Of a stretch of 64,000 nt of DNA, positions 2,355 through 16,768 are shown piece by piece. The stretch is taken from assembly GCA_965216785.1 (NCBI GenBank), contig OZ244197.1:1376001-1440000 (forward strand). The letters are read 5' to 3'. Below the pieces are notes generated by a model. It worked only from the letters and a program-made list of their open reading frames with translations, ran no database searches and was not told where the DNA came from. Source of the stretch: Thermodesulfobacteriota bacterium (GTDB taxonomy: Bacteria > Desulfobacterota_D > UBA1144 > Nemesobacterales > UBA2774). The position numbers and the translations under genes are program-made. The stretch's first letter is position 1; each line of letters starts with the position of its first letter.

Positions 2355-3212
2355 CTACTTTGGTTTATTTCCCGGCCACATAACCGCCCTCACGCTGCCC
2401 TCCAGGATCTGGGGCATTTTATAGTCGGGGTAGAGCGTCTTCATTTTTTTTACAGCCTCATCGATAGTTTCAGAATTATTAACCGTTTCCTGAAAATTGA
2501 GTAGATATTCCACAGCCCGATCTAGAATATCCGCGCCGCCCGCCGGCCCGTGCCCGGGATAGACTTTGGAAATAGGGCCGATAGCGCGGATTTCGCTTAG
2601 CTGCCCGAGCCATTTCTCGACATTGTTCTCTCCGACCCACATGTGAACGCCGCCGCTTGCCAGGTCGCCTACGAACAAAGTTTGTGAGGAAGGGATGTAA
2701 ACGACCGTATTTTCAACACTCTCGCCGCCTTTGAATATCCTGTAGGTAATTTGAACGTCCTCAAGTTTTAACTCTCCGTTTTGCAGCACTGTCAGATCAC
2801 TAAAAGCCTGCCGCTTATCGTCAGAGCCTGTCCAGTACTTAGAGGTATTCCTGACGCCCGCTATAGTCTCTGGGCCCCCGGTTATTTCGGCGCCCCCGAA
2901 CTCCTTTCCTATAAACTCAAGGCCGTAGTAGTGGTCCGGGTGAGGGTGAGTGATAATTATCCCGACCAGCTCTTTCCCGGTTGATTTGATTAACTCTCCG
3001 ACCTTCTTTCCCTCAGCCGGGGAAAACTGGGCGTCTATTAAAATCGCCTCATTCTCTCCAATAAGGATGTGGGAATTACTCATAAACCCTTCAGCAGGTG
3101 CTGCGTAGGTGATTACAGAGAATTCGGGTCCAGAATCGGTTTGAGCTTCCAGTGCCGCTGTAGAATAAGAGATAGCAGAAAATAAGAGAAAAACAGCTGC
3201 AAAGATAGGCAT
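2355..3212 (-). CDS. Exported MBL-fold metallo-hydrolase
   Basis: THPHPDH (HxHxDH), LFVGD and YPGHG motifs; signal peptide from the ATG at 3212. Confidence 0.85.
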   Translation of the reverse strand: MPIFAAVFLLFSAISYSTAALEAQTDSGPEFSVITYAAPAEGFMSNSHILIGENEAILIDAQFSPAEGKKVGELIKSTGKELVGIIITHPHPDHYYGLEFIGKEFGGAEITGGPETIAGVRNTSKYWTGSDDKRQAFSDLTVLQNGELKLEDVQITYRIFKGGESVENTVVYIPSSQTLFVGDLASGGVHMWVGENNVEKWLGQLSEIRAIGPISKVYPGHGPAGGADILDRAVEYLLNFQETVNNSETIDEAVKKMKTLYPDYKMPQILEGSVRAVMWPGNKPK

Positions 3213-3270
3213 AGCGTATCTATCTAAATTACACCTATCCTCACAGCAATATAGCCAACAGGTCAATGTT

Positions 3271-3624
3271 CTAGTTTACAAAAAGTACCCAGCCGGTTTG
3301 CTCGTTCCCCTGAACTTTACCAGCGATTTTCACATTAACTCTGTTGGGGTTTTGCTCAATCTTCATAAGACCATCCTGAAGCCCCTGGAGTACATAAACC
3401 TTGTCTCCACTCACTAATAAATGCTGATGTGGTGGTAATGTGTCACACGCATGAGTGGCGATTACCGGTTTGACTGTGCCTTTGGCATAATCCGGGATCA
3501 GGCAAATTACGTTCCCCTGTATAGTCGTGGTAGCTTCCTCATCAGCATAACTAGCTGTCCCAGCAAAAAGAACAAATGAACCTATAATCATCAAAGACAA
3601 AAACATTGTTTTAAATCCACGCAT
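3271..3624 (-). CDS. Exported hypothetical protein
   Basis: GGAGG RBS, signal peptide (...ASYA), two Cys and a His cluster (HACDTLPPHQH), co-oriented in the operon. Confidence 0.7.
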   Translation of the reverse strand: MRGFKTMFLSLMIIGSFVLFAGTASYADEEATTTIQGNVICLIPDYAKGTVKPVIATHACDTLPPHQHLLVSGDKVYVLQGLQDGLMKIEQNPNRVNVKIAGKVQGNEQTGWVLFVN

Positions 3625-3720
3625 AATTTAGCCTCCTAAAACTGTATTTTGTATGTTTAAGCGCTAAAAAAATTATTAGCAACTCTTAGGACTGACTCTG
3701 TTCCTGTACAAGCTGAAAAA

Positions 3721-4269
3721 TCATTTTTTTAGTACCGGATAACCTTCTATATAGATCCAATCGGTTTGCTTTGCCGGTACGTGACAGCCAAGGCAATCCT
3801 TTTTATAGTCCGTTGCCACATCCTTGGAAGGGTCCTTGGCGTAATAAAGAGCCCATCCCCATCCGTCCCCCCATTTCGGGTTGTCCGGGAACCTGCCTTT
3901 TTCGTCTTTCACCATGACGAACCACAGAACGATATCCTTGGCGTGGAGCACCCCCTTTCCCGTAGTCATATCCTGGACGCCTTCCGAGAGTACTTCTTTT
4001 ACCAACACCGCTCCGTCAGGGAATTTCCCGTTCTTTTTATAACTCTCGGCAACCCCGGGCTCGGTGTATACGTTGTGTATGCCGCTCTCCCTGTCCTCGG
4101 GGTGTACCCAGGAGCCCAGGTAAGTCCATTTTTCCCTAAAATCCGCCGGTCGGGTGATGTTGCCTTCAGAGTCCACATAAGGTGAGAATGATCCATTCTC
4201 ATCCGCCTGTGCGGAAATCATCAGTCCGAATGTAAATAAGGCTGCAAACATTAATAAAAAACTGTTCAT
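3721..4269 (-). CDS. Cytochrome P460 family protein (divergent copy)
   Basis: Signal peptide; P.DFREKWTYLGS, HNVY, FPDGAVLVKE, VMVKD, GDGWGW; C-terminal CLGCH haem motif. Confidence 0.88.
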   Translation of the reverse strand: MNSFLLMFAALFTFGLMISAQADENGSFSPYVDSEGNITRPADFREKWTYLGSWVHPEDRESGIHNVYTEPGVAESYKKNGKFPDGAVLVKEVLSEGVQDMTTGKGVLHAKDIVLWFVMVKDEKGRFPDNPKWGDGWGWALYYAKDPSKDVATDYKKDCLGCHVPAKQTDWIYIEGYPVLKK

Positions 4270-4315
4270 GTACGACTCCCTTTATTTGTTTTGATTTCAC
4301 CGCCCGCACAACCGA

Positions 4316-4945
4316 TCACCTGCACGGACGCATTGCGCGCGCGTGGAGAGCGTGGATCTTTTTACTGCTGTTGAGCACGAGGCCGTCGAAAAAATTCACG
4401 GTCCAGGCATTTTGTGTAATGATTACGCTTGGAGTAGAAGTCCAGTAGTAGGTCGTTGCCATTTCTCCGTGAACACTGCTCGCTGGACGAAACGAGCCGT
4501 AGTCCACGATGCTCTGCAGCTCCTTTACATCCGGTATACACCAGTCTCTGTGTCCGGTGAAACCACATTTCTCACCTTTAGCGCAGTCTTCGTCGCTTTT
4601 ACACTCTGTTGCGCCTTCTCCCTCGCACGTGCTGTTAAGCGCTCTCAGAAAAACCTCAAACAGAGTGCCGTCGGGCTCTGAATCACTTTCCTCTCTCTGC
4701 GTCCATGTATATGTGTTGTCCACGTCGTGGACGCTTTCATCGTCTGTTTTAATCTCCCAGACAATCTTCGTTTTCTCATCCGTAAACGTTCCGTCTCCGT
4801 TGTCCTTGTAATGCTCCGCCGGGCCGTACCTTTCCAAGCCAAACGCATCTGGGATGAAAAACCCGGAGTAAAGAAAGTGACACACCGAAATGCAGATTAA
4901 GCCTAAAAAAAGCGGCAGCGATATTTTAAAAGAAAGCTTCTTCAT
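4316..4945 (-). CDS. DUF1566 (Lcl C-terminal-like) domain protein
   Basis: DNGDGTFTD.KT.IVWE, DW.IP.VKELQSIVD, YWTST, AWTVNFFDG motifs; N-terminal hydrophobic segment. Confidence 0.8.
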   Translation of the reverse strand: MKKLSFKISLPLFLGLICISVCHFLYSGFFIPDAFGLERYGPAEHYKDNGDGTFTDEKTKIVWEIKTDDESVHDVDNTYTWTQREESDSEPDGTLFEVFLRALNSTCEGEGATECKSDEDCAKGEKCGFTGHRDWCIPDVKELQSIVDYGSFRPASSVHGEMATTYYWTSTPSVIITQNAWTVNFFDGLVLNSSKKIHALHARAMRPCR

Positions 4946-5058
4946 TTAGCTCCTACTCCTCAAAAGTGGATAGGCGGCAATGAATCGCCTCGCAAATAAC
5001 CCACCTGAAAAGGAGATTTAATTACCCGGTAATAGCTGTGTCTGCGGTAATCATGCCT

Positions 5059-5670
5059 CTATTTCTTTTTCACTGCCGCCTTTGCCGCTCTTAGAACAGG
5101 ATAGAATTGTGTGAATACCCAGTCCTCACCCGCAGTTGCCTGATGACAGGCGTTGCAAGACGCCGTTGGCTGCAATTTGCCGGATTCGGGGTAGGGAGGC
5201 GGTTTATGGCTGAATGAGAAATACACCCAGTTCCCGGGCTCGTCGGGATAGCGTTTTTTACTTTTATACGCGGCTTCGAGTCCGATGAAATCACCTTCAA
5301 AAAAGCCGTTTCCGCTAGAGGCTTTTGTTGCCCCAACGCTCACAAGCTCCTTAATCAGCAGAGTCCCTTCGGGGAATTCCCCTGTTTTTGAATAATGATC
5401 AAAGCTATTTGGGTCCATGTAGACATTGTGAAACTCTGGGAAGGGCGCTTCGGGCGGATTGAGCGAGTTCGGAGTAACGGGAGTGCCTACGTATATCCAC
5501 TTCCTCCACTCATAATCCTTGGGCTGAATCAGATTCCCATCCTTATCGAACTTGGCGTGTTCTTTAGCCTCCGCTTGAGGCTGGGCAAGAATCATCATGC
5601 TAAGAAGAAGTATTAAGGACGCGCATGCCAGTACGCTTACAAACAAATACTTTGATCTCAAATTTAACAT
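5059..5670 (-). CDS. Cytochrome P460 (Nitrosomonas CytL-like)
   Basis: W.YVGTPVTPN.LN..APF, TGEFPEGTLLIKELVSVG, GNGFF.GDFIGLEA, EPGNW, CNACH, VFTQFYPVLRAAK closely match the N. europaea P460 sequence as recalled. Confidence 0.92.
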   Translation of the reverse strand: MLNLRSKYLFVSVLACASLILLLSMMILAQPQAEAKEHAKFDKDGNLIQPKDYEWRKWIYVGTPVTPNSLNPPEAPFPEFHNVYMDPNSFDHYSKTGEFPEGTLLIKELVSVGATKASSGNGFFEGDFIGLEAAYKSKKRYPDEPGNWVYFSFSHKPPPYPESGKLQPTASCNACHQATAGEDWVFTQFYPVLRAAKAAVKKK

Positions 5671-5955
5671 CTGACACCTCCTAAAAAAGATTTTTTAGAA
5701 AATCTTATTTGACGGTGAGTATCAAACCTAAATCCAGTATTTATACAAAGTATCTACATTCCGATTCGAATTTTAGTTTCTATTGAAATAGTGTTAGAGA
5801 CTCGTAAGAGCAGAGCTTGAAAACCGACCTAGAAATTGAGACCCGCCGTGGCTCAAATTCTTAGCTCTCCTTAATATTAGGATCACTAACTAATTTTGAC
5901 GATAACATATTGACATATTCAAATCAAGGGTTTTTAAATAGTGATGGGGAATTAT

Positions 5956-5987
5956 AAAAAAGGGGCGAAAGTCCCGCGCCCCTTTTT
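5956..5987. terminator. Intrinsic terminator of the 8070-6053 operon
   Basis: AAAAAAGGGGCG-loop-CGCCCCTTTTT hairpin. Confidence 0.75.
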
Positions 5988-6052
5988 GTAGTCGATTGCT
6001 CTCTTGATAAACGCGCCGAATCGCGGAAAGCCCGCGCCGAACCCCGGCAGGA

Positions 6053-6406
6053 TTATTTTGCTACGGTGATCTGCGCTTTCATATTCGGATGATAGCGGCA
6101 GAAATATGTTTCATACATGCCTTTTTTAACAACTGTCTGCCACTTTCCTTCCGCCTCGATGAGTCCCGAGTCCCAGCTCTCGTCATCGGCTGTCACCGTA
6201 TGCGGGATAAAATCGTAGTTTATCCATGTGATTGTGTCGCCGGGCGTTACGGTCAGCTCCTTGGGAGAGAACTCCAGGTTTCGTATCTCGACCACGTGCT
6301 CCTTTGCTACGGAGTCACCAGCCGCAGGGGGCTGGACGGGCATTGATAATAGGACTGCGGCCGCAATCGCAACCACAGTCCTAAGTGAGGATGATAGTAT
6401 GCTCAT
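6053..6406 (-). CDS. Cupredoxin (amicyanin/plastocyanin-like blue copper protein)
   Basis: F.P.EL.V..GDTITWIN, PHTVT and YFCRYHPNM provide the His/Cys/His/Met type-1 Cu ligands. Signal peptide; ATG at 6406 right after the upstream stop. Confidence 0.9.
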   Translation of the reverse strand: MSILSSSLRTVVAIAAAVLLSMPVQPPAAGDSVAKEHVVEIRNLEFSPKELTVTPGDTITWINYDFIPHTVTADDESWDSGLIEAEGKWQTVVKKGMYETYFCRYHPNMKAQITVAK

Positions 6407-6407
6407 T

Positions 6408-6968
6408 TTATTTGTTGACCGCATCGACCATATTCTGGGCATGCTGCTCGTGGCTTTTGAAGATTACGATAGCCTGACCGAAGAGCTCTTTCATCTGAGG
6501 GTTTTGAATGTTGGGGATGAACGTGCCCTCAACTAAAGAGTTAACGGCCTGATGGTAGGCAAGCTCGTTCTCCGCATATCTCTTATCGAACTCAGCTCCA
6601 CTCAAAGCGCTCATCTCTTCTACAAGCTGGTCAGCCTGCTTGTTCAGGTTCTGGCTCAAGAAGTTGTCCTGAGGCTGTGCGCCCAGTTTCTGTAAAAGCG
6701 CGAGGGCCTGCTCGTTAACGCCGGTGTGGTCGCGCACCATGGTCTCGGCAAACTCTATCACGACCGGGTTCTTTGACTTAGCCAGCGCCAAATGCGCGTA
6801 GCGGATGTCGATGTTGTCCGCCGTATAGGCTACGTGCGCTATCTCAAGGTCGTTAAGGTCCGCAGGGGACGGAGCCTTGTCGGCCGATGCAGAGATGGAA
6901 GCTGCGGCAAAGATAATAGCCACTGCCAAGAAAGCGAAAACTGATCTAATAATAGTTTTCTTACTCAT
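6408..6968 (-). CDS. DUF4142 ferritin-like exported protein
   Basis: LNDLEIAH, FAETMVRDH, LSGAEFDKRY..NELAYH motifs; signal peptide. Confidence 0.85.
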   Translation of the reverse strand: MSKKTIIRSVFAFLAVAIIFAAASISASADKAPSPADLNDLEIAHVAYTADNIDIRYAHLALAKSKNPVVIEFAETMVRDHTGVNEQALALLQKLGAQPQDNFLSQNLNKQADQLVEEMSALSGAEFDKRYAENELAYHQAVNSLVEGTFIPNIQNPQMKELFGQAIVIFKSHEQHAQNMVDAVNK

Positions 6969-7025
6969 AGTTGTTACTACCTCCTAAGTGTTATTGGTTA
7001 AACAACTTGATGTCGTACCAAAATA

Positions 7026-7487
7026 TCAGAGATCCGCCGGGTTTTTGTCTTTAATTCCTGGCCAGTTCTGATCGGCTTTGACGATGTTTCCGGGGATGTC
7101 TTCAAACCACATTTTCTGAATGTTTCTGTCTAGGTTCAAGTAGAGCTTACCGTCAACTATCTTCCAGACTTCGGGGTCGCCTACGAACTTCTTATTGACT
7201 GAAACACCGAAAGCGCAGTATCCGCCGTACGCGGGGAGATACTTCTCCGGGTTCTTCTCAAACGCCTTTTTATTTTCCTCGTTTGCGAAAAGGTAAGTAA
7301 CACCGTCTACGACCACGAGGTTGTTGCCGTCGCCCCTCACTGGTTTTCCTTCCGTGTGGTAGGAAACGAGGTCGTATCCGAGCACGCCCGTGGTGCTAGT
7401 TTCAACGCCCGCTGCAAATGAGTCAGCGGCCCAAAAGCTAACTGCTACTACAAATACCGTTAATATTAAAGATTTGATTCTGTTCAT
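7026..7487 (-). CDS. YHS domain-containing exported protein
   Basis: GYDLVSY, YLFANEEN..F..NPEKYLPAYGGYCAFGV, DP..WKIVDGKLYLN, ADQNWP. Confidence 0.88.
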   Translation of the reverse strand: MNRIKSLILTVFVVAVSFWAADSFAAGVETSTTGVLGYDLVSYHTEGKPVRGDGNNLVVVDGVTYLFANEENKKAFEKNPEKYLPAYGGYCAFGVSVNKKFVGDPEVWKIVDGKLYLNLDRNIQKMWFEDIPGNIVKADQNWPGIKDKNPADL

Positions 7488-7551
7488 GATAATCTCCTTA
7501 TAAGTTTATTTTTCGGAGAGGTTTACTCCCCTATACCTTTTAAATCTCTAC

Positions 7552-8070
7552 TTACACATATCTGATGTGGTACTTCTCTGAGAGCGCATCGATTTGTTCC
7601 TGAGTGGGCTCGCCTTTTGCGTAAAGTGCGGCCATCTCGACGAAGTAGTTATCGAACTGCCCCGGCAGTATGGTGTCTATAACGATGCTAGGCTTGTCGC
7701 CTACGTTTGTGAAGCCGTGGGATATCCCGCGCGGCAACAGCGCCGTAACGCCCGGAACCGCAAGCATGGTCTGATCGCCGAGGGATACCTCGATCTCGCC
7801 CTCGAGCACGTACACGAGCTCGTCTTCGTTCTCGTGTACGTGGGAAAGGACTCCCTTGCCCGGAGGGGTTACGATCTGGATCACCGAAAATACGTTATTG
7901 GTATCCTGGCTCTTCACCTTGTGTATGAAGTCGCCGCCCGCTATGTTTAGCACGTCGCCGCCGTCCGGTACTACAATGATGGGGTCCTGCGTGAAGGAGT
8001 TTCCTTCCCCGTCTACAAAGTAGACGCTGTCCTTTGCTTCAGCTGGATTGTTTACTGACATGTTTATCAC
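7552..8070 (-). CDS. Cupin domain protein (quercetinase-like)
   Basis: HVHENEDE..YVLEG and LPRGISHGF cupin motifs. Confidence 0.85.
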   Translation of the reverse strand: MINMSVNNPAEAKDSVYFVDGEGNSFTQDPIIVVPDGGDVLNIAGGDFIHKVKSQDTNNVFSVIQIVTPPGKGVLSHVHENEDELVYVLEGEIEVSLGDQTMLAVPGVTALLPRGISHGFTNVGDKPSIVIDTILPGQFDNYFVEMAALYAKGEPTQEQIDALSEKYHIRYV

Positions 8071-8131
8071 CTCCTAGTGATAATTTATGACGTTTGGATT
8101 TTGAGATCGTCATAATCATGCCCTCTATAAG

Positions 8132-8148
8132 TACAAGAGCCGTGCCAA
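8132..8148 (-). promoter_or_regulatory. Sigma-54 (-24/-12) promoter
   Basis: Minus strand reads TTGGCACGGCTCTTGTA, ~60 bp upstream of the cupin gene; GT instead of GC at -12. Confidence 0.7.
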
Positions 8149-8305
8149 GAGGCGCGCGGTTTGTGAAAAGCGGGTGTAACACCCCTTCATCATTCAGTAT
8201 TGTGTCGGTCCGGAGGTGAGTCTGCCAAGCTGAGGTACACGGTGGCCGTTACGGAATATCACAACGTACCGATATGCCACGACTTGGCGGGTGGGTGGAG
8301 GGAAA

Positions 8306-8548
8306 GCAGGATAAAATAAAGATAGCGATTGCCGGAGAGATCCAGAATCAAGTTCAGGACATGGTCCGGGATGACAAGTAGTGCTGGTGCCCGGGGCCGG
8401 ACTCGAAGCGGCGGGGGGCAGAGGCGAGCGCTTTATAGCGATGCCTGCAGGATAAAATAAAGATAGCGATTGCCGGAGAGATCCCGAATCAAGTTCAGGA
8501 CATGGTCCGGGATGACAAGTGGTGCTGGTGCCCGGGGCCGGACTCGAA
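8306..8548. repeat. 102-bp direct repeat (8306-8407 / 8447-8548) including the tRNA-Leu 3' end
   Basis: Two copies, period 141 bp, 2 mismatches. Each holds TTCGAGTCCGGCCCCGGGCACCA (minus strand) plus a REP-like GTCATCCCGGA...GATCTC palindrome. Confidence 0.9.
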
Positions 8549-8612
8549 CCGGCACGAGCGTGAACTCGAGGGATTTTAAGTCCCTTGCGTCTACCAATTC
8601 CGCCACCCGGGC
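8526..8612 (-). tRNA. tRNA-Leu(TAA)
   Basis: GCCCGGGTGGCGGAATTGGTAGACGC AAGGGA-CTTAAAA-TCCCT, long variable arm, GGTTCGAGTCC, ends in CCA. Confidence 0.97.
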
Positions 8613-8756
8613 ACAGTAGGGCGGGCTCACTATTATAAAAACAAGAAAGAATAATAGCGGGAAGATTTGTATTTTACAGTTTTTACAGAGTCATTCAATA
8701 GCGGGCGGCTCATTACTTAAGAGAAATGATTGTTTAATTCCAGGGATCGGCAGAAT

Positions 8757-9107
8757 TTACAAATCACTTTTCATCTCTTCTATCTCTTTATTAAGGAAAT
8801 AGGACAATATGGTTCTTATAACTACGATACCGCCTAGAAAAATAAGCTCTTCCGTTGTTTGATGCAGAACCGTTTTTATTATATCGGCGACTATCATTAT
8901 TTCTAAACCCAGCAAAAGATAACTGCCCAAAAAACACCTGATAGTTTTTATATCAGAGCTGCTAAGAGTTTTATTCCTTATCCTCAGCGCAAAATAGTCA
9001 TACATTGCTTTTATGAAACCCCATAAAATAAATAATATCGCTACTATATCTATAATCTCTGTTACCGGAGTAAAGATAGATACGATGAATTCTTCAAAAT
9101 GAAGCAT
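8757..9107 (-). CDS. DUF1622 membrane protein
   Basis: LG.YLLLGLEIM..ADII.T...LG.IVVIRTILSYFL.KEI signature. Confidence 0.88.
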   Translation of the reverse strand: MLHFEEFIVSIFTPVTEIIDIVAILFILWGFIKAMYDYFALRIRNKTLSSSDIKTIRCFLGSYLLLGLEIMIVADIIKTVLHQTTEELIFLGGIVVIRTILSYFLNKEIEEMKSDL

Positions 9108-9455
9108 GTGTGCCCCCCTGATAATTATTTATTTTCATATCCTGAAGCGAAAGCCCCGGAGTCCTTTCTCTAACCACATTGATATCATCTAATTTACTTT
9201 ACTCCGATTGCTATTAAAAACTTTGAGGCTTATATGACCTACTACTTTAGACTTCGTATGACGAAATAAGTAGCGTCCGCCTGCCCCTGCTTATTACCCC
9301 AGTATCTCCAAAATATAAAATTCACCAAATATCGTGGATTCACTAAATATCCAAGATACCTCTAACTCACCAAAATTGTAGAGAACCCCTCCGGAATTAA
9401 GCATTATCACGTCATTCTAGAGGCTTAGAGCCCTCTTCGCTCATCAGAGGAGCCG

Positions 9456-9471
9456 TGGCACGCGCGTTGCA
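9456..9471 (+). promoter_or_regulatory. Sigma-54 (-24/-12) promoter
   Basis: TGGCACGCGCGTTGCA is a perfect consensus, 38 bp before the ATG; AGGAGG RBS follows. Confidence 0.85.
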
Positions 9472-9509
9472 CTTAAGGGGCGTATCAAAAAAATTCAGGA
9501 GGCAGTAAC

Positions 9510-10487
9510 ATGACTTACATTATGAGACAAACGGTTTTAGTTTTATTCGCCATTGTGATGATAGGGCAAGCGGCGGCATTCGCGGGAGAGCAGACAGCAC
9601 CTCCCACTCAGACCCTTCATAAGACGGTGAAGATAGACGGGCTGGACATATTCTACAGGGAAGCGGGCCCTAAGGACGCACCGACGATCCTTCTGCTGCA
9701 CGGGTTCCCTACTTCATCGCATATGTTCAGGAACCTTATCCCGGCCCTTTCGGACAAGTACCACGTGGTGGCTCCGGATTACCCCGGATACGGGTTCAGC
9801 TCTATGCCCACGGTGGACGAGTTTGACTACACTTTCGACAACTTGGCCGCGGTAATGGAAAAGTTTATAGATAAGCTCGGGCTGGATAGCTACAGCCTTT
9901 ACCTTCAGGACTACGGCGCGCCGGTAGGTTTCCGCATCGCCGCGAAGAGTCCTGAGAAGGTGGAAGCGCTTATCGTCCAGAACGGAAACGCCTACGAAGA
10001 GGGGCTGCGCGAGTTCTGGGTTCCGCTGAGAGCCTACTGGAAGGACCGCTCGGAAAAGAACGCCGCTGTGCTAAGAGAGTTCCTTACACTCGATACTACC
10101 AAGTGGCAGTACACCCACGGCGTCAGGAACGTCGAGACGATAAGCCCCGACAACTGGGGGCACGTACAACCGCTGCTTGACCGCCCGGGCAACCAGGAGA
10201 TACAGCTTGCGCTATTTTACAGCTACGGCTCAAACCCTCCGCTCTATCCCGACTGGCAGGCGTACATGAGAAAGCACCAGCCCCCGACGCTGATCGTATG
10301 GGGTAAGAACGACTACATATTCCCGGCTGAGGGCGCATATCCCTACAAGCGGGACCTTAAGAACGTTGACTTCAATATACTCGACACCGGGCACTTTGCC
10401 CTGGAAGAGGACCTTGAGGTCATTACAGGGCACATTCGGAGATTTATGTCTGAGAACGTAAACAAAAACTCCTCTGCCAAAAAATAG
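9510..10487 (+). CDS. Exported alpha/beta hydrolase (epoxide hydrolase/dehalogenase-like)
   Basis: [22 protein letters not shown] nucleophile elbow, DTGHFALE; signal peptide. Confidence 0.9.
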
Positions 10488-10510
10488 TTTCCAACTAAAA
10501 GACAGAACGA

Positions 10511-10548
10511 GCAGGCCGCGCTCTGAAAATGGCGCGGTCTGCGTTTCT
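10511..10548 (+). terminator. Intergenic stem-loop (terminator or processing stem)
   Basis: GCAGGCCGCGC...GCGCGGTCTGC followed by GTTTCTT. Confidence 0.5.
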
Positions 10549-10605
10549 TATGACAAACAGGCTCTGCTTACAGGGGCTAAATCACATAAAACGGAGGTAT
10601 TCAAA

Positions 10606-11277
10606 ATGGCATTACCCGATCCCGGAGTAAAAGTAGATAAGACTAATACGGCACTGCTGATTACGGACCCGCAGAACGATTTCCTCAGCCCCGAGGGGGT
10701 TACGTGGGGAGTCGTCGGCGAGAGCGTCACGGAGAACAATACGGTCTCGAACCTTGAGCAGCTCTTTAAGACGGCTAAGAAAAGGGGCATCCCGGTATTC
10801 ATCTCTCCTCACTATTATTACCCGACAGACCACGGGTGGAAGTTTGAGGGAGCGCTCGAGAGACTGATGCACTATTTAGGTATGTTCGACAGAAAAGGCC
10901 CTCTCAGTCTGGAGGATTTCGAGGGCTCGGGGGCCGATTGGCTTGAGCGCTACAAAGGCTATATAAACGACGGGGAAACAGTAGTTTGCAGCCCGCACAA
11001 GGTTTACGGCCCTGAGACAAACGACGTCGTTCTACAGCTCAGGAAGCGCGGCATCGGAAGAGTGGTACTGGCCGGGATGTCGGCAAACCTGTGCGTAGAG
11101 TCGCACCTGAGGGAGCTGCTTGAGACAGGGTTTGAGGTCGCGGTTGTAAAGGACGCCACCGCGGCGGCCAAGGTGCCCGAAGGCGACGGCTATGAGGCCG
11201 CTCTTACGAATTTCCGCTTTCTCGCCGGAACCGTCTGGACTACGAAAGAAGCCGTAAGGCACATGAATAAAAGCTGA
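10606..11277 (+). CDS. Isochorismatase-family cysteine hydrolase
   Basis: TALLITDPQNDF (Asp), PHK (Lys) and GMSANLCVE (Cys) catalytic triad motifs. Confidence 0.88.
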   Translation: MALPDPGVKVDKTNTALLITDPQNDFLSPEGVTWGVVGESVTENNTVSNLEQLFKTAKKRGIPVFISPHYYYPTDHGWKFEGALERLMHYLGMFDRKGPLSLEDFEGSGADWLERYKGYINDGETVVCSPHKVYGPETNDVVLQLRKRGIGRVVLAGMSANLCVESHLRELLETGFEVAVVKDATAAAKVPEGDGYEAALTNFRFLAGTVWTTKEAVRHMNKS

Positions 11278-11351
11278 TATCTGCGGCTCTTAAATAATTT
11301 CTCTAAATCCAACCAAACACCGTCCCGGCTCTTTGGAATTATTAACAGGTT

Positions 11352-11936
11352 CTATGCCGGGGCGGGTTCCGTAAGTACCTTTTCAATATTTTTAAGCGCT
11401 TCCCTAAACGGCTTTGTCGAGCCGATTCCTCTTGAGAGCACTAGTCCTCCTTGAAGCAGAGTCAAAGCGTTTACGGCTCTTGACTGAGCTTCCTCTTTAC
11501 TAACCCCATTTTCCTCCAAAACGCCAGCAATCGTGCTTATTAATGTCTTGAAACCGTTCTTTATAGATTTGGCGAACGGCCCCTTATCTATAGTGGGATG
11601 AGAGAGCATGTTCAGCAGGCAGGACTCGTTTCCGCCAGCGTAGAGGTTGTTAAGCTCCTTTACGAGGTGCTTGATTTTCTTGTCGGGAGTGAGCTTGCCG
11701 TCTTTACTCCTTAGGGGCTCAATTATGTTCTCGGCTATCCACGCGTCGGCAAAGTCCAGCACCGATTGGGCCATCTCTTCCTTGCCACCGGGAAAGCGGT
11801 GGTATAGGCTTGCTTTCTGAAGCCCCGTTACCTCGGCGAGCACGGTCATCGACGCCCCTTCGTATCCGTAGTTCCTGAACACCTTGGCCAGTCTCTCCAT
11901 GAGTTCCTGATCGCTTACTTTCGCAGTTCGAGCCAC
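11352..11936 (-). CDS. TetR/AcrR family regulator (LmrA/YxaF-like)
   Basis: HTH F..YGYEGASM..LA..TGL.KASLYHRFPGGKEE; single Cys in GNESCLL. Confidence 0.92.
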   Translation of the reverse strand: MARTAKVSDQELMERLAKVFRNYGYEGASMTVLAEVTGLQKASLYHRFPGGKEEMAQSVLDFADAWIAENIIEPLRSKDGKLTPDKKIKHLVKELNNLYAGGNESCLLNMLSHPTIDKGPFAKSIKNGFKTLISTIAGVLEENGVSKEEAQSRAVNALTLLQGGLVLSRGIGSTKPFREALKNIEKVLTEPAPA

Positions 11937-12027
11937 ATGAGCCTCCTATTCTTTACTGAACATTCGTTATAATGTACCTGTAATCACTCATAAATAAATA
12001 ATTTTTACAAACTACTGAAAAAAACTA

Positions 12028-12077
12028 TTGACAAACTATTTGTATTTCACTACAATAATTATACCGAACGTTCGGTA
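12028..12077 (+). promoter_or_regulatory. Sigma-70 promoter of the activator gene with overlapping palindromic operator
   Basis: TTGACA-17bp-TACAAT (12028-12056), then perfect palindrome TACCGAACGTTCGGTA (12062-12077). A 13/16 copy, TACTGAACATTCGTTA, lies at 11954-11969 in front of tetR. Confidence 0.8.
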
Positions 12078-12107
12078 ATTATCAAGTAGAGTTAAGGAGG
12101 TTTCAGA

Positions 12108-13160
12108 ATGTCTTGCAAAATAGCCGATATGAATTATCTCTGTGAGCGGGGTAAAAATTCTTCACCGGCCGTGCGCTATCTAAAGCTGTCTAGGGCAGGA
12201 GATTACTCGGGTGTGTTTAATAATATCGTAGGTAAGAGCACGGCGCTAAGGGCTGTGCTGAGTAAGGCAAGGCTCGTAGCGGGAACAAACGCTACAGTGT
12301 TGATTACCGGGGAGACCGGTACGGGTAAGGAGCTGATCGCCAGGGCCGTTCATAACGAGAGCCCGCGAAGAGAGCGCCCTATGGTAAAGGTCAACTGCTC
12401 GGCGCTTCCCGCAAACCTCATAGAGAGCGAGCTGTTCGGCCATGAGAAAGGAGCTTTCACCGGGGCCATAGATAAAAAGATAGGACGGTTCGAGCTTGCG
12501 GACAAGGGTACGATATTCCTTGACGAGATCGGGGACATGCCGCTTGAGCTTCAAGCCAAGCTATTGAGAGTGCTTCAGGAAGGTGAGTTTGAGAGGCTCG
12601 GAAACCCCAGGACCATTAAAGTGGACACACGCGTCATCGCGGCCACGAACCTTAACTTTGAAGAGGCGATTAAAGAAGGAAAATTCCGTGAAGACCTCTT
12701 TTACAGGCTAAACGTATTTCCCCTCCACGCACCGCCCCTCAGAGAAAGAAAAGAAGACATACCGGGGCTTGTTTCTCACTTCAGCGTAAAGCTGGGCGCG
12801 AAGGTAGGTAAGGAAATACATTCCATAAGTTATAAAGCGCTCGATCAACTCTCGCAATATGATTGGCCCGGTAACGTGCGTGAGCTTGAAAACGCTATAG
12901 AAAGAGCGATTATCACAGCCGAGAATAGCACGATACAGCCCGGGGAATGGATACCTCAAAAGAATAAGACACCGCTTGCTTCGGATGAAATATATACTTT
13001 AGAGGAAAACGAGAAGCGCCTAATCATGAGGGTCACCGAGCTTACGGGTGGTATTTTGAGCGGCGAAAGGGGCGCGGCAAAACTGCTCGGAATTAACCCC
13101 AATACGCTGCGGAGCCGAATGGAGAAACTTGGTATAAAAAGACGGCTCAGTGTTTGTTAG
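12108..13160 (+). CDS. Sigma-54-dependent transcriptional activator lacking an N-terminal sensor domain
   Basis: GETGTGKE Walker [30 protein letters not shown] and C-terminal Fis-type HTH. Only ~37 aa precede the AAA+ domain. Confidence 0.93.
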
Positions 13161-13277
13161 GCTAAAAGATAAGTTACTTCGAGGGAACGCGGTGACCACC
13201 GCAATCCCGGACACTCACGACTGCTCTATAGTTTTACTCCCATAGATCCGCTACATATTCCGGTCTGTCCTCGGACT

Positions 13278-13376
13278 CTGATTTGATTCCTGCCCCGGCA
13301 TCGCTGTGAAGCGCTCGCCTCTGTCCCCTGATTTTATTCCCGCGGGCATCGCTGTGAAGCGCTCGCCTCTGTCCCC
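13278..13376 (+). repeat. Tandem ~48-bp repeat (2 copies; third inverted copy at ~8413-8460)
   Basis: GGCATCGCTGTGAAGCGCTCGCCTCTGTCCCC is exact at 13297-13328 and 13345-13376. Confidence 0.85.
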
Positions 13377-13522
13377 ATTACGATATATCACAGAATTATT
13401 TTATTTCGCTATTAAATCTCATGATCCAAAGCTCGTGTGCGGGCGTATTATTGTGCAACTGATCAACATTGTTTAACGATAACAGGCGCTTGTATGGCTT
13501 AAATCAGCATAAAACGCACGTT

Positions 13523-13538
13523 TGGCACAGGGCTTGCA
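13523..13538 (+). promoter_or_regulatory. Sigma-54 (-24/-12) promoter
   Basis: TGGCACAGGGCTTGCA, ~42 bp before the ECF sigma ATG. Confidence 0.82.
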
Positions 13539-13580
13539 CTTATCACGAATGTAAAAATAAAGGTGTTACGGAGAGTTAAG

Positions 13581-14273
13581 ATGAGCAATACAAATTTAGC
13601 GCAAACACAAAAAACAAAAGGCTACGACATGCCGGCGGCGGACCCAAAGCAGTTTAGCGGAGAGCCCGCAAGAACGGAATATCTGAAAGCGCCTGACGAG
13701 CTGCTCGCAGAGCTTTACGTCAGTAAAAAAGCACAATGGGCCTTCAATGAGCTCGTAAACCGGTACAGCTGCAAGATCTATAAGCTCGCATACAAGTTTA
13801 CTAAGGACGAGAACGGCGCCAATGACGTCCTTCAAGAGGTCTTTCTCGCATTGTTTCAGAAGCTCGATACATTTAGGGGAGAGTCAAAATTCTCGACCTG
13901 GGTTTTCGGAATCACCAGGAATACGAGCCTCATGTATCTGAAAAAACAAAGAAAGCACCTTAGGGACCTATCGCTTACTGGGGCCCCAGACGCTGAGGGC
14001 GATACGCCCGAGTTCCTGGTGGAGGACTGGAGGTTCATACCGGACACGCTGATTATGGAGGAGGAAAAGCGGTACAAAGTTGAAGAAGCGCTGAGCGCGA
14101 TACCCGAGAAGTACAATACCGTGCTCCGCATGAGAGACCTTGAAGGCCGGACGAACCTTGAGATCGGTGCGATATTGGGCATTAGCCTATCGGCTGTAAA
14201 ATCGCGGGTCAGACGAGCGAGGATGCAGCTTAAGGAAAGTCTGGTGCAATACAGGGTGAATGAGCTTTACTGA
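13581..14273 (+). CDS. ECF RNA polymerase sigma factor
   Basis: Region 2 DVLQEVFL...FRGESKFSTW..I..N; region 4 LRDLEG....EIG.ILGIS..AVKSRVRRAR. ATG at 13581 follows GGAG. Confidence 0.92.
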   Translation: MSNTNLAQTQKTKGYDMPAADPKQFSGEPARTEYLKAPDELLAELYVSKKAQWAFNELVNRYSCKIYKLAYKFTKDENGANDVLQEVFLALFQKLDTFRGESKFSTWVFGITRNTSLMYLKKQRKHLRDLSLTGAPDAEGDTPEFLVEDWRFIPDTLIMEEEKRYKVEEALSAIPEKYNTVLRMRDLEGRTNLEIGAILGISLSAVKSRVRRARMQLKESLVQYRVNELY

Positions 14274-14403
14274 AACTCGCGCTTATTCCGGTTTTTCAAA
14301 GGGAAAATTGGAACTTTAGAACAATATTCTAGAGTCCCTTGTATATGGGTTTTAGAATGCGTTAAGGTTTGGATAGATATACGCGGGTAAGTATTCTGCG
14401 GCT

Positions 14404-14622
14404 TTAGTGGTAGTTTCGGTTAATTATCTGCTCTTCATCTTCGTCGTCGTCCCAGTCCTCGTCATCATCGTCGTCCCAGTCTTCTACGTCTTCGTCGTCG
14501 AACAATCCGTCTTCGTCGTCCAATTCGTCCCAGAGCTCCTCGTCTTCGTCCTCATCCCACTCGTCCTCATCATCGTTGCTCCACTCATCGTCTTTTTCAA
14601 GAAGCTTTAATTCTTTAGTCAT
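14404..14622 (-). CDS. Small hyper-acidic Asp/Glu/Trp-rich protein
   Basis: 72 aa, ~60% D/E, GGGGGT RBS, TTGACA-type promoter near 14711. Confidence 0.6.
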   Translation of the reverse strand: MTKELKLLEKDDEWSNDDEDEWDEDEDEELWDELDDEDGLFDDEDVEDWDDDDDEDWDDDEDEEQIINRNYH

Positions 14623-14842
14623 TAAATACCCCCGAACTACAGAAATCTAAGGAAAAATTTGCACTGCCTAATTTATATCTGAAAACATACATCTTGGCAT
14701 AGAAATGTCAAGCAAAATTATAGACAGTTTGTAATGCCTGGAATTTCCGTTTAAATGCAATAATATTTAAATATTACAGGGTGTTAGAGGTGTCAAGTTG
14801 CCGGATGGCAGGGGCGAGTAGGTATGCTGTCCGGGCTTATTT

Positions 14843-15874
14843 CTATGTATCGTCCGCCGAGCCCGGATCGCTGTGGTTATTTAAGAATTCCTCGGCCTTT
14901 AGAACCATTTCTTCAGACCCGGTAAAAATCGGGGTTCTCTGGTGAAGCTCTACGGGCTCGATGTCCAAAATACGTCTTACACCGTCAGTAGATCTTCCCC
15001 CTGCCTGCTCTACTATAAAAGACATAGGGTTGCACTCGTACACGAGCCTCAGCTTGCCGACGGGGTGATCGTTTAACGGCGGGTAGATGTATATGCCACC
15101 TGTTATTAAGTTCCTGTGGATGTCCGCGACCATCGAGCCTATGTAGCGGGCTGAGTAGGGTGAGCTTGATTCCCTGCCTACTTTCTTGCAGTAATTTATA
15201 TAATCTTTTACGCCCTGCGGGAAGCTGTCAAAGTAACCCGAGTTCACGGAGTAAGTCCTTCCTTCCGGAGGGATCTTCATGTCGAGATGGGACAGGCAAA
15301 ACTCCCCGATCGAGGGGTCTAGAGTAAAACCGTTCACACCGTGCCCGGTGCTGTATACGAGCATGGTAGATGAGCCGTATATTATATAGCCCGCGGCTGC
15401 CTGTTCCGCGCCCTTTTGAAGAAAGTCCTGGATTGTACAAGGGGCCCCCGTGGGAGTGACTCTTCTATAGATCGAGAATATGGTCCCGACAGAAACGTTG
15501 ACGTCAATGTTGGAAGAGCCGTCTAGAGGATCGATTGCGACTACGTATTTACCCTCGTAAGAGGACTTGCCTTCAAACGCTATAAACTCCTCGTCCTCTT
15601 CAGACGCGACGCCGCAGCACTGGCCTCCGAGCTCAAGTGAGGCTATGAAGCGTTGATTGGCTAATATGTCGAGCTTTTTTACTTCCTCCCCCTGCACGTT
15701 CGTATAGCCGGTCGATCCGAGCACGTCCACAAGTCCCGCTTTACTGACGTCTCTGTGTACAATCTTGGCGGCAAGGGCAATGTTACGCAAGAGCCTGGAC
15801 AGCTCACCGGTTGCGTAGGGGAATTCAGTTTGTTTTCTGATAATAAATTCGTCTAAAGTCTGAACGCCGATCAT
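14843..15874 (-). CDS. fbp: Fructose-1,6-bisphosphatase class 1
   Basis: [50 protein letters not shown]. Confidence 0.96.
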
Positions 15875-16030
15875 AAACAAATATAATACCAAAATTCTAA
15901 GTGCTAGGGAAATTTGAGTTATAAATATCTAATGTTATCTAGAGGTTATGCGCGCTTTTTGTTTTAATAGGTGGTTTTAAGATGGAATTTTTATTACTCT
16001 TAGGTAAGCTGCCAGCGCACGGTATTAAAG

Positions 16031-16057
16031 AAAAAAGGGAGCCGAAGCCCCCTTTTT
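16031..16057 (-). terminator. Intrinsic terminator after IPTL-CTERM gene
   Basis: Minus strand AAAAAGGGGGCTTCGGCTCCCTTTTTT. Confidence 0.8.
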
Positions 16058-16084
16058 GTTCTATTGTTGTCGTGGTTAACAGAT

Positions 16085-16768
16085 TTAAGCACTCACCTTC
16101 TTTCTGCGTATGGCTATCAGGCCGATAATTCCAAGCACTCCTGCCATAGCGATCATCCCCCATTCAGAGAGTGTGGGTATGGGTCGCGGCGGTACATGAG
16201 CATAAACAATGCGCTCATACTCGTTCTCGTCGATCCCAAGGTCTTCAATCGCTCCGCATCGATATCCTTCACTATTATTCAAATGCCAGCACAGCCTTTC
16301 GTCGTCAGCGCCGCTATTATCAATGTCGCAATTAACTTTCTTTACAACATCTCCCGCTCTGGCAAATCCCCAGGCATTCCCATCTTCTACTTCACCACCG
16401 ACATTGTTGAAATACCAGCCGACACCGTTTGCTATGTGAACAACATCAGTATTATCATCACCTGTATCGAAAGTGACGTCGCTCCTCTCGCCCTGGGCAA
16501 GCAGCATAAGAGTGGAGCTTCCGGTCATTCTACAGGACAGCATCAATCGTTCCCCGGGACATTGGGAGAGCACCTGGTCGGCGTCCATATGGACATCATA
16601 GGTGTCACGGTAGCACTCGGTCCATCCGCCACCGGTTACCGTGGCTACCGCTACATTCGTCTTAGGTCCGACCGGAAGGTAGCTCTGTGCTTTTACTTCT
16701 AGGGGTGTAAATATAAAAACCGCAACTGTTACTACAATTATTGGTAAAAATGAAAGTGCATTTTTCAT
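16085..16768 (-). CDS. IPTL-CTERM sorting-domain surface protein
   Basis: Signal peptide; C-terminal RPIPTLSEWG + transmembrane helix + RRKK. Confidence 0.88.
   Translation of the reverse strand: MKNALSFLPIIVVTVAVFIFTPLEVKAQSYLPVGPKTNVAVATVTGGGWTECYRDTYDVHMDADQVLSQCPGERLMLSCRMTGSSTLMLLAQGERSDVTFDTGDDNTDVVHIANGVGWYFNNVGGEVEDGNAWGFARAGDVVKKVNCDIDNSGADDERLCWHLNNSEGYRCGAIEDLGIDENEYERIVYAHVPPRPIPTLSEWGMIAMAGVLGIIGLIAIRRKKVSA

Follow-up and report, generated by a model that had tools for sequence, protein, structure and literature searches.

The proposed regulatory circuit and its components

Does a tetR gene that lies divergent from a sigma-54 activator gene without a sensor domain, close to three sigma-54 promoters of which one precedes a gene for an extracytoplasmic function (ECF) sigma factor, belong to a single regulatory cascade, as was proposed in an initial annotation of the sequence? 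The window is the whole stretch of 64,000 nucleotides analysed here, corresponding to positions 1,376,001-1,440,000 of the single-contig 3.12-Mb genome (G000) of a Thermodesulfobacteriota bacterium, and orthologues were compared in relatives labelled as Thermodesulfobacteriota metagenome-assembled genomes. The genome carries rpoN, three HU/IHF-family genes and 15 sigma-54 activator genes, and Pfam and NCBIfam profile matches bear out every gene and family that had been named within the locus, together with their coordinates. The genes, the operator, the promoter geometry, an enhancer-like motif and a domain loss emerge from the sequence and from comparison with relatives, and the circuit appears to be real, conserved and probably functional. 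The complete wiring, from TetR through the sensorless activator and the three sigma-54 promoters to the ECF sigma factor, is the one that we favour, with moderate confidence.

For binding, inducer, activator activity and ECF output we infer the following sequence of events. TetR would sit on a palindrome and repress both its own gene and the activator gene. Its release would come from a reactive small molecule, which likely acts at Cys106 as an electrophile or oxidant. Once synthesised, the sensorless activator is predicted to be active; it would then bind common enhancer boxes and thereby open all three sigma-54 promoters. Further genes would likely receive the signal from the ECF sigma factor. 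The features of the divergent regulatory region are as follows.

11352-11936, minus strand: TetR repressor with an LmrA/YxaF-like C-terminus and a single cysteine, Cys106 (TetR_N and PF21993)
11954-11969, no strand: second, weak operator before tetR, with three mismatches (genome scan)
12028-12056, plus strand: sigma-70 promoter of the activator gene, TTGACA-17-TACAAT (TTGACA-17 kept in 5/5 relative loci)
12058-12085, minus strand: leftward sigma-70 promoter for tetR, TTGATA-16-TATAAT (counterpart scored in 4/5 relative loci)
12062-12077, no strand: main predicted TetR operator, a 16-bp palindrome (genome scan and alignment of relatives)
12108-13160, plus strand: sigma-54 activator of 350 residues with AAA+ and Fis-type helix-turn-helix (HTH_8) domains (Pfam; GAFTGA)

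A conserved, probable operator for the TetR repressor

The palindrome at 12062-12077 is perfect, as had been reported, and both its weaker copy in front of tetR and the TTGACA-17-TACAAT promoter of the activator gene are present. The main palindrome begins 5 nt past the -10 element of the activator promoter and falls within the spacer of the leftward tetR promoter; since it therefore overlaps the activator start site and interrupts the tetR promoter, repression is predicted from geometry. Perfect 16-bp palindromes number 58 in this genome, so that by itself the palindrome is not above chance; like the -24/-12 elements described below, it is accepted as real on account of its conservation in relatives. 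It is the only site in the genome with two or fewer mismatches, and among intergenic sites with up to three only the copy in front of tetR joins it. The idea that TetR directly controls further genes elsewhere in this genome was rejected, as no further intergenic operator occurs at three or fewer mismatches.

The TTGACA-17-(-10)-operator layout is kept in all five aligned relative loci (G021, L027, L028, L029 and G026), each of which likewise has a second operator closer to tetR. Among TetR homologues with at least 40% identity, 13 of 17 loci have the operator within 200 nt upstream, compared with 10 of 63 below 40%, after three loci with too little DNA had been dropped. One of the misses in the higher identity class is G003, in which an insertion sequence (IS) has entered the upstream region of tetR. 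An 18-bp form of the palindrome gave at least 120 genomic matches; 80 of these were examined, and this TetR type is present at 45 of them, in 43 cases within 250 nt. An orthologue of the hydrolase encoded in our window is found at 28 of these 43 loci, in various phyla, and is the commonest neighbour, but many of the palindrome loci are from related Bacteroidota, so these counts are non-independent and their weight in favour of the circuit is lessened. Because the operator is co-conserved with the TetR subfamily, it very likely belongs to this TetR. Repression by TetR of its own gene and of the activator gene via the palindrome is strongly supported by these sequence comparisons.

An out-of-frame ATG (11918-11938) overlaps the GTG start of tetR, 3 nt behind the ribosome-binding site, and opens a frame of 6-7 codons. 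It is possible that this damps TetR translation.

An activator that has lost its sensor domain

The activator had been described as lacking receiver, GAF and PAS domains, and only the AAA+ and HTH_8 families were found in it. These are preceded by a poorly conserved leader of about 35 residues, and Pfam detects nothing ahead of residue 37-40. The length of 350/351 residues recurs in six other clusters, which are 68-85% identical to the activator, and the Walker A/B, GAFTGA, R-finger and sensor II columns are conserved across them. In a midpoint-rooted tree of 51 rows, from which HrpS is absent, these seven members are monophyletic (100/98) and nested among PAS-bearing activators of 475-523 residues, to which the activator is 61-64% identical. 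This nesting of a clade of uniform length inside PAS activators indicates that the sensorless form is derived and represents a stable domain loss. The best NCBIfam matches of the activator are FhlA and NifA, both below cut-off, and it also falls below the TIGR02974 cut-off.

Truncation as an artefact was rejected in view of the seven same-length clusters, the intact motifs and the single clade. A broader form of this explanation would see in the short activator a remnant of decay or a product of misassembly, and in the cluster stress genes that came together by chance. It could appeal to the N-terminal 35 residues, which are poorly conserved and not confidently folded (the AlphaFold model is weak, with a mean pLDDT of 62.5 from 19 sequences and N-terminal values below 50), and to the patchy occurrence of tetR in the phylum. 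Yet seven independent clusters with this length and intact motifs largely refute the remnant reading, the gene has a strong ribosome-binding site and an in-frame stop four codons upstream, and the module is conserved; we consider this explanation extremely unlikely.

By analogy with engineered truncations such as DctD250, a DctD without regulatory and DNA-binding domains that is reported to be constitutive (PMC3844500), the activator may be constitutive once made. Alternatively, it may depend on another protein: a PAS or GAF paralogue with which it would form a hetero-hexamer, in the manner of HrpR/HrpS, or a trans-inhibitor that must let go of it, as for PspF/PspA and HrpS/HrpV. Known sensorless activators work via a partner or trans-inhibitor (PMC5263251). 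A sensorless homologue (P0124) and a PAS activator (P0146) share an equal longest-contig size of 7962, suggesting a common contig, and a PspA/IM30 gene is present in the genome. Nevertheless, all catalytic motifs of the activator are intact, the column of PspF Trp56, the PspA contact, holds Arg here, and none of the genes of the locus was recognised as encoding a small, cytoplasmic protein of inhibitor type. Dependence on a partner is improbable in our estimation.

A scan of viral contigs recovered only generic activators with at most 55% identity. A second short activator, of 378 residues with a leader of about 55, is encoded elsewhere in the genome (3012632-3013768; L018:8633-9769) on another branch of the tree. 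Its gene sits between a RidA-like gene and a hydrolase gene, and it may represent a second loss of a sensor domain.

Three sigma-54 promoters with a common enhancer-like motif

The -24/-12 elements had been placed before the cupin-YHS-DUF4142-cupredoxin operon, the hydrolase gene and the ECF gene, and all three were located as claimed. Together with their upstream boxes they are as follows.

8133-8147, minus strand: -24/-12 element of the cupin-YHS-DUF4142-cupredoxin operon, a TTGT variant (pattern scan)
8252-8281, minus strand: two enhancer-like boxes, 8252-8263 and 8270-8281, 116 and 134 nt upstream of the -24
9325-9354, plus strand: two enhancer-like boxes of the hydrolase promoter, 9325-9336 (weak) and 9343-9354 (motif matrix)
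9456-9470, plus strand: -24/-12 element of the hydrolase gene, conserved in G021 and L027
13381-13423, plus strand: enhancer-like boxes of the ECF promoter, 13381-13392 (strong) and 13412-13423 (weak) (motif matrix)
13523-13537, plus strand: -24/-12 element of the ECF gene, conserved in G021, G003, L028 and L029

Within the window the -24/-12 pattern is not above chance, with five matches against 2.87 expected and 19 of 100 shuffles reaching five. A relaxed pattern matches 61 times genome-wide, compared with 21-28 times in five shuffles, and 41 of these matches lie upstream of genes. Sigma-54 sites are conserved before the cupin orthologues in G003, L029 and G001, and the TTGT variant is common to G001, L029 and a cupin paralogue within the same genome.

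Gibbs sampling of 13 upstream regions revealed a 12-nt motif (TGTGATATTTCG-like) with an information content of 13.0, against 9.9-10.5 for shuffled regions. In all but one of the 13 (12 regions) it clusters at -112 to -116 and -141 to -144. With a matrix built from nine sites in other genomes, the ECF, cupin and hydrolase promoters rank 1, 2 and 5 of 41, although this ranking is only partly independent, being in part circular, since the window regions took part in motif discovery; this weakens it as support. The cupin paralogue, at a distance of 60 kb, takes rank 3, and an unrelated gene for an exported protein rank 4. The scores of the ECF, cupin and hydrolase promoters are reached by 0, 0 and 0.3%, respectively, of 600 control regions. 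As an independent check, five promoters outside the training set (in G001, G036 and G058, and two in G007) have boxes scoring 10.6-12.5 at -110 to -134, and four other -24/-12 matches in the same loci have box scores of at most 4.9. The common enhancer-like motif makes the three promoters look co-regulated.

It had been claimed that the activator drives these three promoters. The common motif and the synteny described below uphold this as far as it goes, but exclusivity does not survive: three further activators (3012632, 1910136 and 1328437) have a near-identical recognition helix, and a fourth promoter, that of the cupin paralogue, bears the same enhancer motif. Control by the activator is probably not exclusive, and up to four activators with the same helix probably serve as inputs, which would make the TetR branch one input of an OR-type regulon. 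A stronger version of this argument holds that the three promoters are mainly run by the other activators of this kind (the GAF protein 1328437, the 661-residue protein 1910136 and the 378-residue protein 3012632), and that the TetR-controlled activator is a minor or redundant input, perhaps acting on the hydrolase promoter only. Apart from the shared helices, and the enhancer motif of the cupin paralogue near 1328437, this would be consistent with the situation in G003, where a GAF activator lies between the cupin-DUF4142-cupredoxin block and the ECF gene and the IS has cut the upstream region of tetR. The GAF activator 1328437 is sister to this G003 activator (100/98), which marks it as a rival driver. 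Similarly, activators of 661-821 residues in G007 and G036, and a partial one in G058, accompany the same motif and ECF paralogues, and the examined stretches of these three genomes contain no such operator. These loci also carry, variously, YHS, P460, hydrolase or cupin genes. On the other side, in G021, L027, L028 and L029 it is the tetR-controlled orthologue that neighbours the hydrolase, ECF and cupin promoters, and the ECF promoter of the window lies directly behind the short activator. We regard a minor role for the TetR-controlled activator as rather unlikely.

The cupin paralogue belongs to a half-module located 60 kb upstream (genome positions 1322315-1330038; L226:6300-7300 and 12438-14039), which comprises an IS, the GAF activator, and paralogues of the cupin and of a 117-residue protein whose sigma-54 promoter bears this enhancer motif too.

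The ECF sigma factor

13581-14273, plus strand: ECF sigma factor, preferred start ATG 13581 (ribosome-binding site; Pfam r2 and r4_2; TIGR02937 above cut-off)

The protein consists of sigma regions 2 and 4 only, and no anti-sigma gene was recognised beside it in the gene list of the window. An 18-nt element at 5832-5849, conserved with G003, lies upstream of a P460-Lcl-P460-MBL gene cluster that has no sigma-54 site among the -24/-12 matches listed for the genome; it is a candidate ECF-type promoter only. As this element is unique in the genome, an ECF motif could not be built from it, and no repeated motif was found that could represent an ECF target promoter, which counts against the lowest tier of the cascade. 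The suggestion that the signal is amplified through the ECF sigma factor is consistent with the conserved sigma-54 promoter before its gene; no target was found to carry the suggestion further, and amplification is therefore hypothetical.

A very acidic open reading frame of 72 residues, with Asp/Glu runs, lies convergent with the ECF gene (14404-14622). Elsewhere in the genome (933867-935264) the ECF paralogue nearest in sequence (46% identity) has a different TetR gene immediately upstream.

Conservation and possible history of the module

The initial annotation had pointed to neighbourhoods in other genomes as a check, and the module does recur there, with its genes co-occurring. An activator orthologous to ours is divergent from tetR in G021, L027, L028 and L029. 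In G021 and L027 this protein is a PAS-type activator of 523 residues, and those of L028 and L029 have the same long N-terminus but are interrupted where the contig stops. No activator intervenes in G026, where a short open reading frame and the hydrolase gene follow the operator-controlled promoter. G001, from the same genus, has the ECF gene (76%) at a contig end, together with cupin and YHS genes. The output module is conserved while its input varies, as judged from these gene arrangements.

Several of these observations weigh against the cascade in the form proposed. In relatives this module is operated by activators that carry PAS or GAF domains; tetR is rare, being present in 4 of the 120 genomes of the phylum that were searched; and the placement of other sensorless members beside tetR is deduced only from equal longest-contig sizes (7962, 5314 and 4778). 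The tetR branch was not found in two genomes of the same genus, both of which are fragmented.

The history of the favoured circuit may be one in which a TetR-operator-hydrolase unit of wide distribution acquired, in this lineage, an additional tier formed by a PAS activator; in one clade the PAS domain would later have disappeared, so that TetR alone remained as a sensor. A fuller version, which we offer tentatively and consider possible rather than likely, postulates a three-stage rewiring. An ancient thiol-stress unit, with direct TetR-operator-hydrolase control in many phyla, would have acquired a PAS activator placed between the repressor and its targets, creating a gate that requires both TetR and PAS signals; subsequent loss of PAS in one clade would have left a single-cysteine TetR as the sole switch of a constitutive activator, of three sigma-54 operons and of an ECF sigma factor that has no anti-sigma. 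If true, Hrp-type logic would have originated a second time, independently, in the service of defence against electrophiles or oxidants, and the locus would provide a new TetR subfamily of thiol sensors along with a defined enhancer.

The same TetR type and operator are also found with YHS and isochorismatase genes in L111 and L161 (Nitrospinaceae). There a long activator of another branch lies about 3.5 kb from TetR, giving a similar gene set in a different phylum.

The signal sensed by TetR

The single cysteine attributed to the TetR protein was confirmed as Cys106, which is invariant in 29/29 aligned homologues. Alignment with Escherichia coli NemR (HHalign probability 91%, 22% identity) brings the Cys106 columns into exact coincidence, and Cys106 of NemR has been implicated in sensing of hypochlorous acid (PMC7464077). 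In other phyla the neighbours of TetR include the GST, MAPEG, CMD, DoxX, PNPOx-like, SnoaL/DUF1348 and RidA families, as identified in a scan of 77 proteins (67 of 115 listed neighbours and 10 added by hand). On the basis of the invariant cysteine, the NemR alignment and these detoxification-type neighbours, it is plausible that the inducer is an electrophile or oxidant acting at Cys106. One point speaks against this comparison: the column of NemR Lys175 is Arg in our TetR and the operators differ, so that this protein is not NemR.

An aromatic or hydrophobic ligand, for example a substrate or product of the hydrolase, would fit a different set of observations, and the module would then be catabolic or xenobiotic-handling. 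LmrA and QdoR respond to flavonoids. The best solved relative of our TetR is Bacillus subtilis YxaF (1sgm, E 8e-17), which has no Cys at the column in question, the Pfam C-terminus is LmrA/YxaF-like, and the hydrolase gene is the commonest neighbour. The invariance of Cys106 in the subfamily and the presence of GST, MAPEG, CMD and YHS-seleno families among the neighbours argue for the reactive inducer instead, and an LmrA/QdoR-like response is doubtful, if a serious possibility. This alternative touches nothing but the signal, and the proposed wiring could stand alongside it.

Relation to known systems

It had been stated that no description of such a combined circuit was known. At the level of logic this is incorrect: the Hrp cascade, together with a TetR protein acting upon it, has been published, so the three-tier logic was already known. 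The respective papers describe activation by HrpR/S of the sigma-54 promoter of the ECF gene hrpL, with no known anti-sigma (PMC5263251), the absence of an N-terminal receiver from HrpS (PMC4490474), transcriptional control of hrpS by HrpY in Dickeya (PMC11960120) and, in 2025, binding of the positive regulator TetR1 of P. syringae pv. actinidiae to regions that lie upstream of hrpR and of hrpL (PMC12285254). The Hrp cascades of Pseudomonas syringae, Erwinia amylovora and Dickeya dadantii and the present locus have in common a transcriptionally controlled gene for a receiver-less activator that leads to the sigma-54 promoter of an ECF gene. However, TetR1 is a positive regulator, whereas repression is predicted here; the output there is a type III secretion system and here hydrolases and exported redox-type proteins; and the activator described here descends from PAS-bearing FhlA-like proteins. 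No type III secretion genes occur among the genes annotated at 2355-16768, a statement that does not extend to hrp-boxes, which were not searched. Nor was a gene resembling HrpV/HrpG recognised, although no family-level search for one was made. The locus is probably a real stress cascade of the plant-pathogen Hrp type that arose separately.

PspF of E. coli (39% identity) is likewise a natural sensorless activator, encoded divergently, with an intact AAA+ core and HTH. It differs in the Trp56 column noted above, in that the pspA-like gene is unlinked here, at 1.70 Mb, and in that control here appears to be transcriptional. NemR resembles our TetR in its conserved Cys106 and in being an autoregulated repressor with detoxification-type targets (PMC7464077). 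It differs, besides position 175, in Cys21 and Cys116, which are absent here, in its operator (TAGACC-N4-GGTCTA, against TACCG-N6-CGGTA), and in its targets, nemA/gloA rather than an activator gene, and its neighbours differ. B. subtilis LmrA/YxaF(QdoR) share the PF21993 C-terminus and include the best PDB match, 1sgm, but are distant and YxaF lacks the cysteine.

We found no paper that joins TetR repression, a sigma-54 enhancer binding protein and an ECF sigma factor, or that links DUF4142 to an ECF sigma factor, in a literature search outside of which subscription journals and supplements lay. New in comparison with Hrp are the sign of the repressor, the origin by PAS loss and the detoxification-type output, and all three sigma-54 promoters have a common enhancer-like motif at -110 to -144. 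No new regulatory principle is introduced. The locus shows sensing moving from an activator domain to a separate repressor, with the PAS-bearing intermediate and the direct TetR-to-hydrolase state still present in relatives, and it draws attention to a TetR subfamily, widespread and uncharacterised, whose cysteine resembles that of NemR. From an uncultured lineage it also yields a testable set of operator, enhancer and promoters, together with a small natural activator whose activity may be constitutive.

Structural genes and other features of the locus

6053-6442, minus strand: exported cupredoxin, plastocyanin/azurin family (Pfam PF00127, E 8e-9)
6408-6968, minus strand: DUF4142 protein with an N-terminal signal-like segment (Pfam PF13628, E 3e-33)
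7026-7487, minus strand: member of the YHS-domain (seleno)protein family (NF041384, 141 bits against a cut-off of 70)
7552-8061, minus strand: cupin, preferred start ATG 8061 (Pfam PF07883; ribosome-binding site)
9510-10487, plus strand: alpha/beta hydrolase of the haloalkane-dehalogenase/epoxide-hydrolase type, with a signal-like N-terminus (profile matches)
10606-11277, plus strand: isochorismatase-family cysteine hydrolase (Pfam PF00857; 85% orthologue in G021)

The DUF4142 protein has an 87% orthologue in G003. The YHS protein contains a single cysteine, Cys91, within a G-Y-C motif that resembles the GxU of its family, which a published table lists with that motif (PMC13188914). No solved structure related to the alpha/beta hydrolase was found at E 1e-25. 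A strong GC hairpin with a T-rich tail (10511-10542), which resembles a terminator, separates the hydrolase from the isochorismatase gene; it questions the co-transcription of this pair and to that extent tells against the proposed regulon.

Two further genes, for tRNA-Leu (8526-8612) and a DUF1622 protein, break up the region. The 3' end of tRNA-Leu(TAA) is included in a direct repeat of 107 nt (97%; 8306-8412 and 8447-8612), and between the two copies of this repeat lies one copy of a repetitive extragenic palindromic (REP)-like repeat; the space between the cupin and hydrolase promoters thus holds a local duplication or integration scar. This 32-nt REP-like repeat occurs at 13297-13328, 13345-13376 and 8414-8445, and has 55 BLAST matches genome-wide, often in tandem arrays of 47-48 nt. 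Further to the left (2355-5670) are genes for an MBL-hydrolase, a 117-residue exported hypothetical protein, and two cytochrome P460-family proteins with Lcl_C. This P460-Lcl_C-MBL cluster accompanies the module in relatives, being complete in G003 and present in part in G007 and G036.

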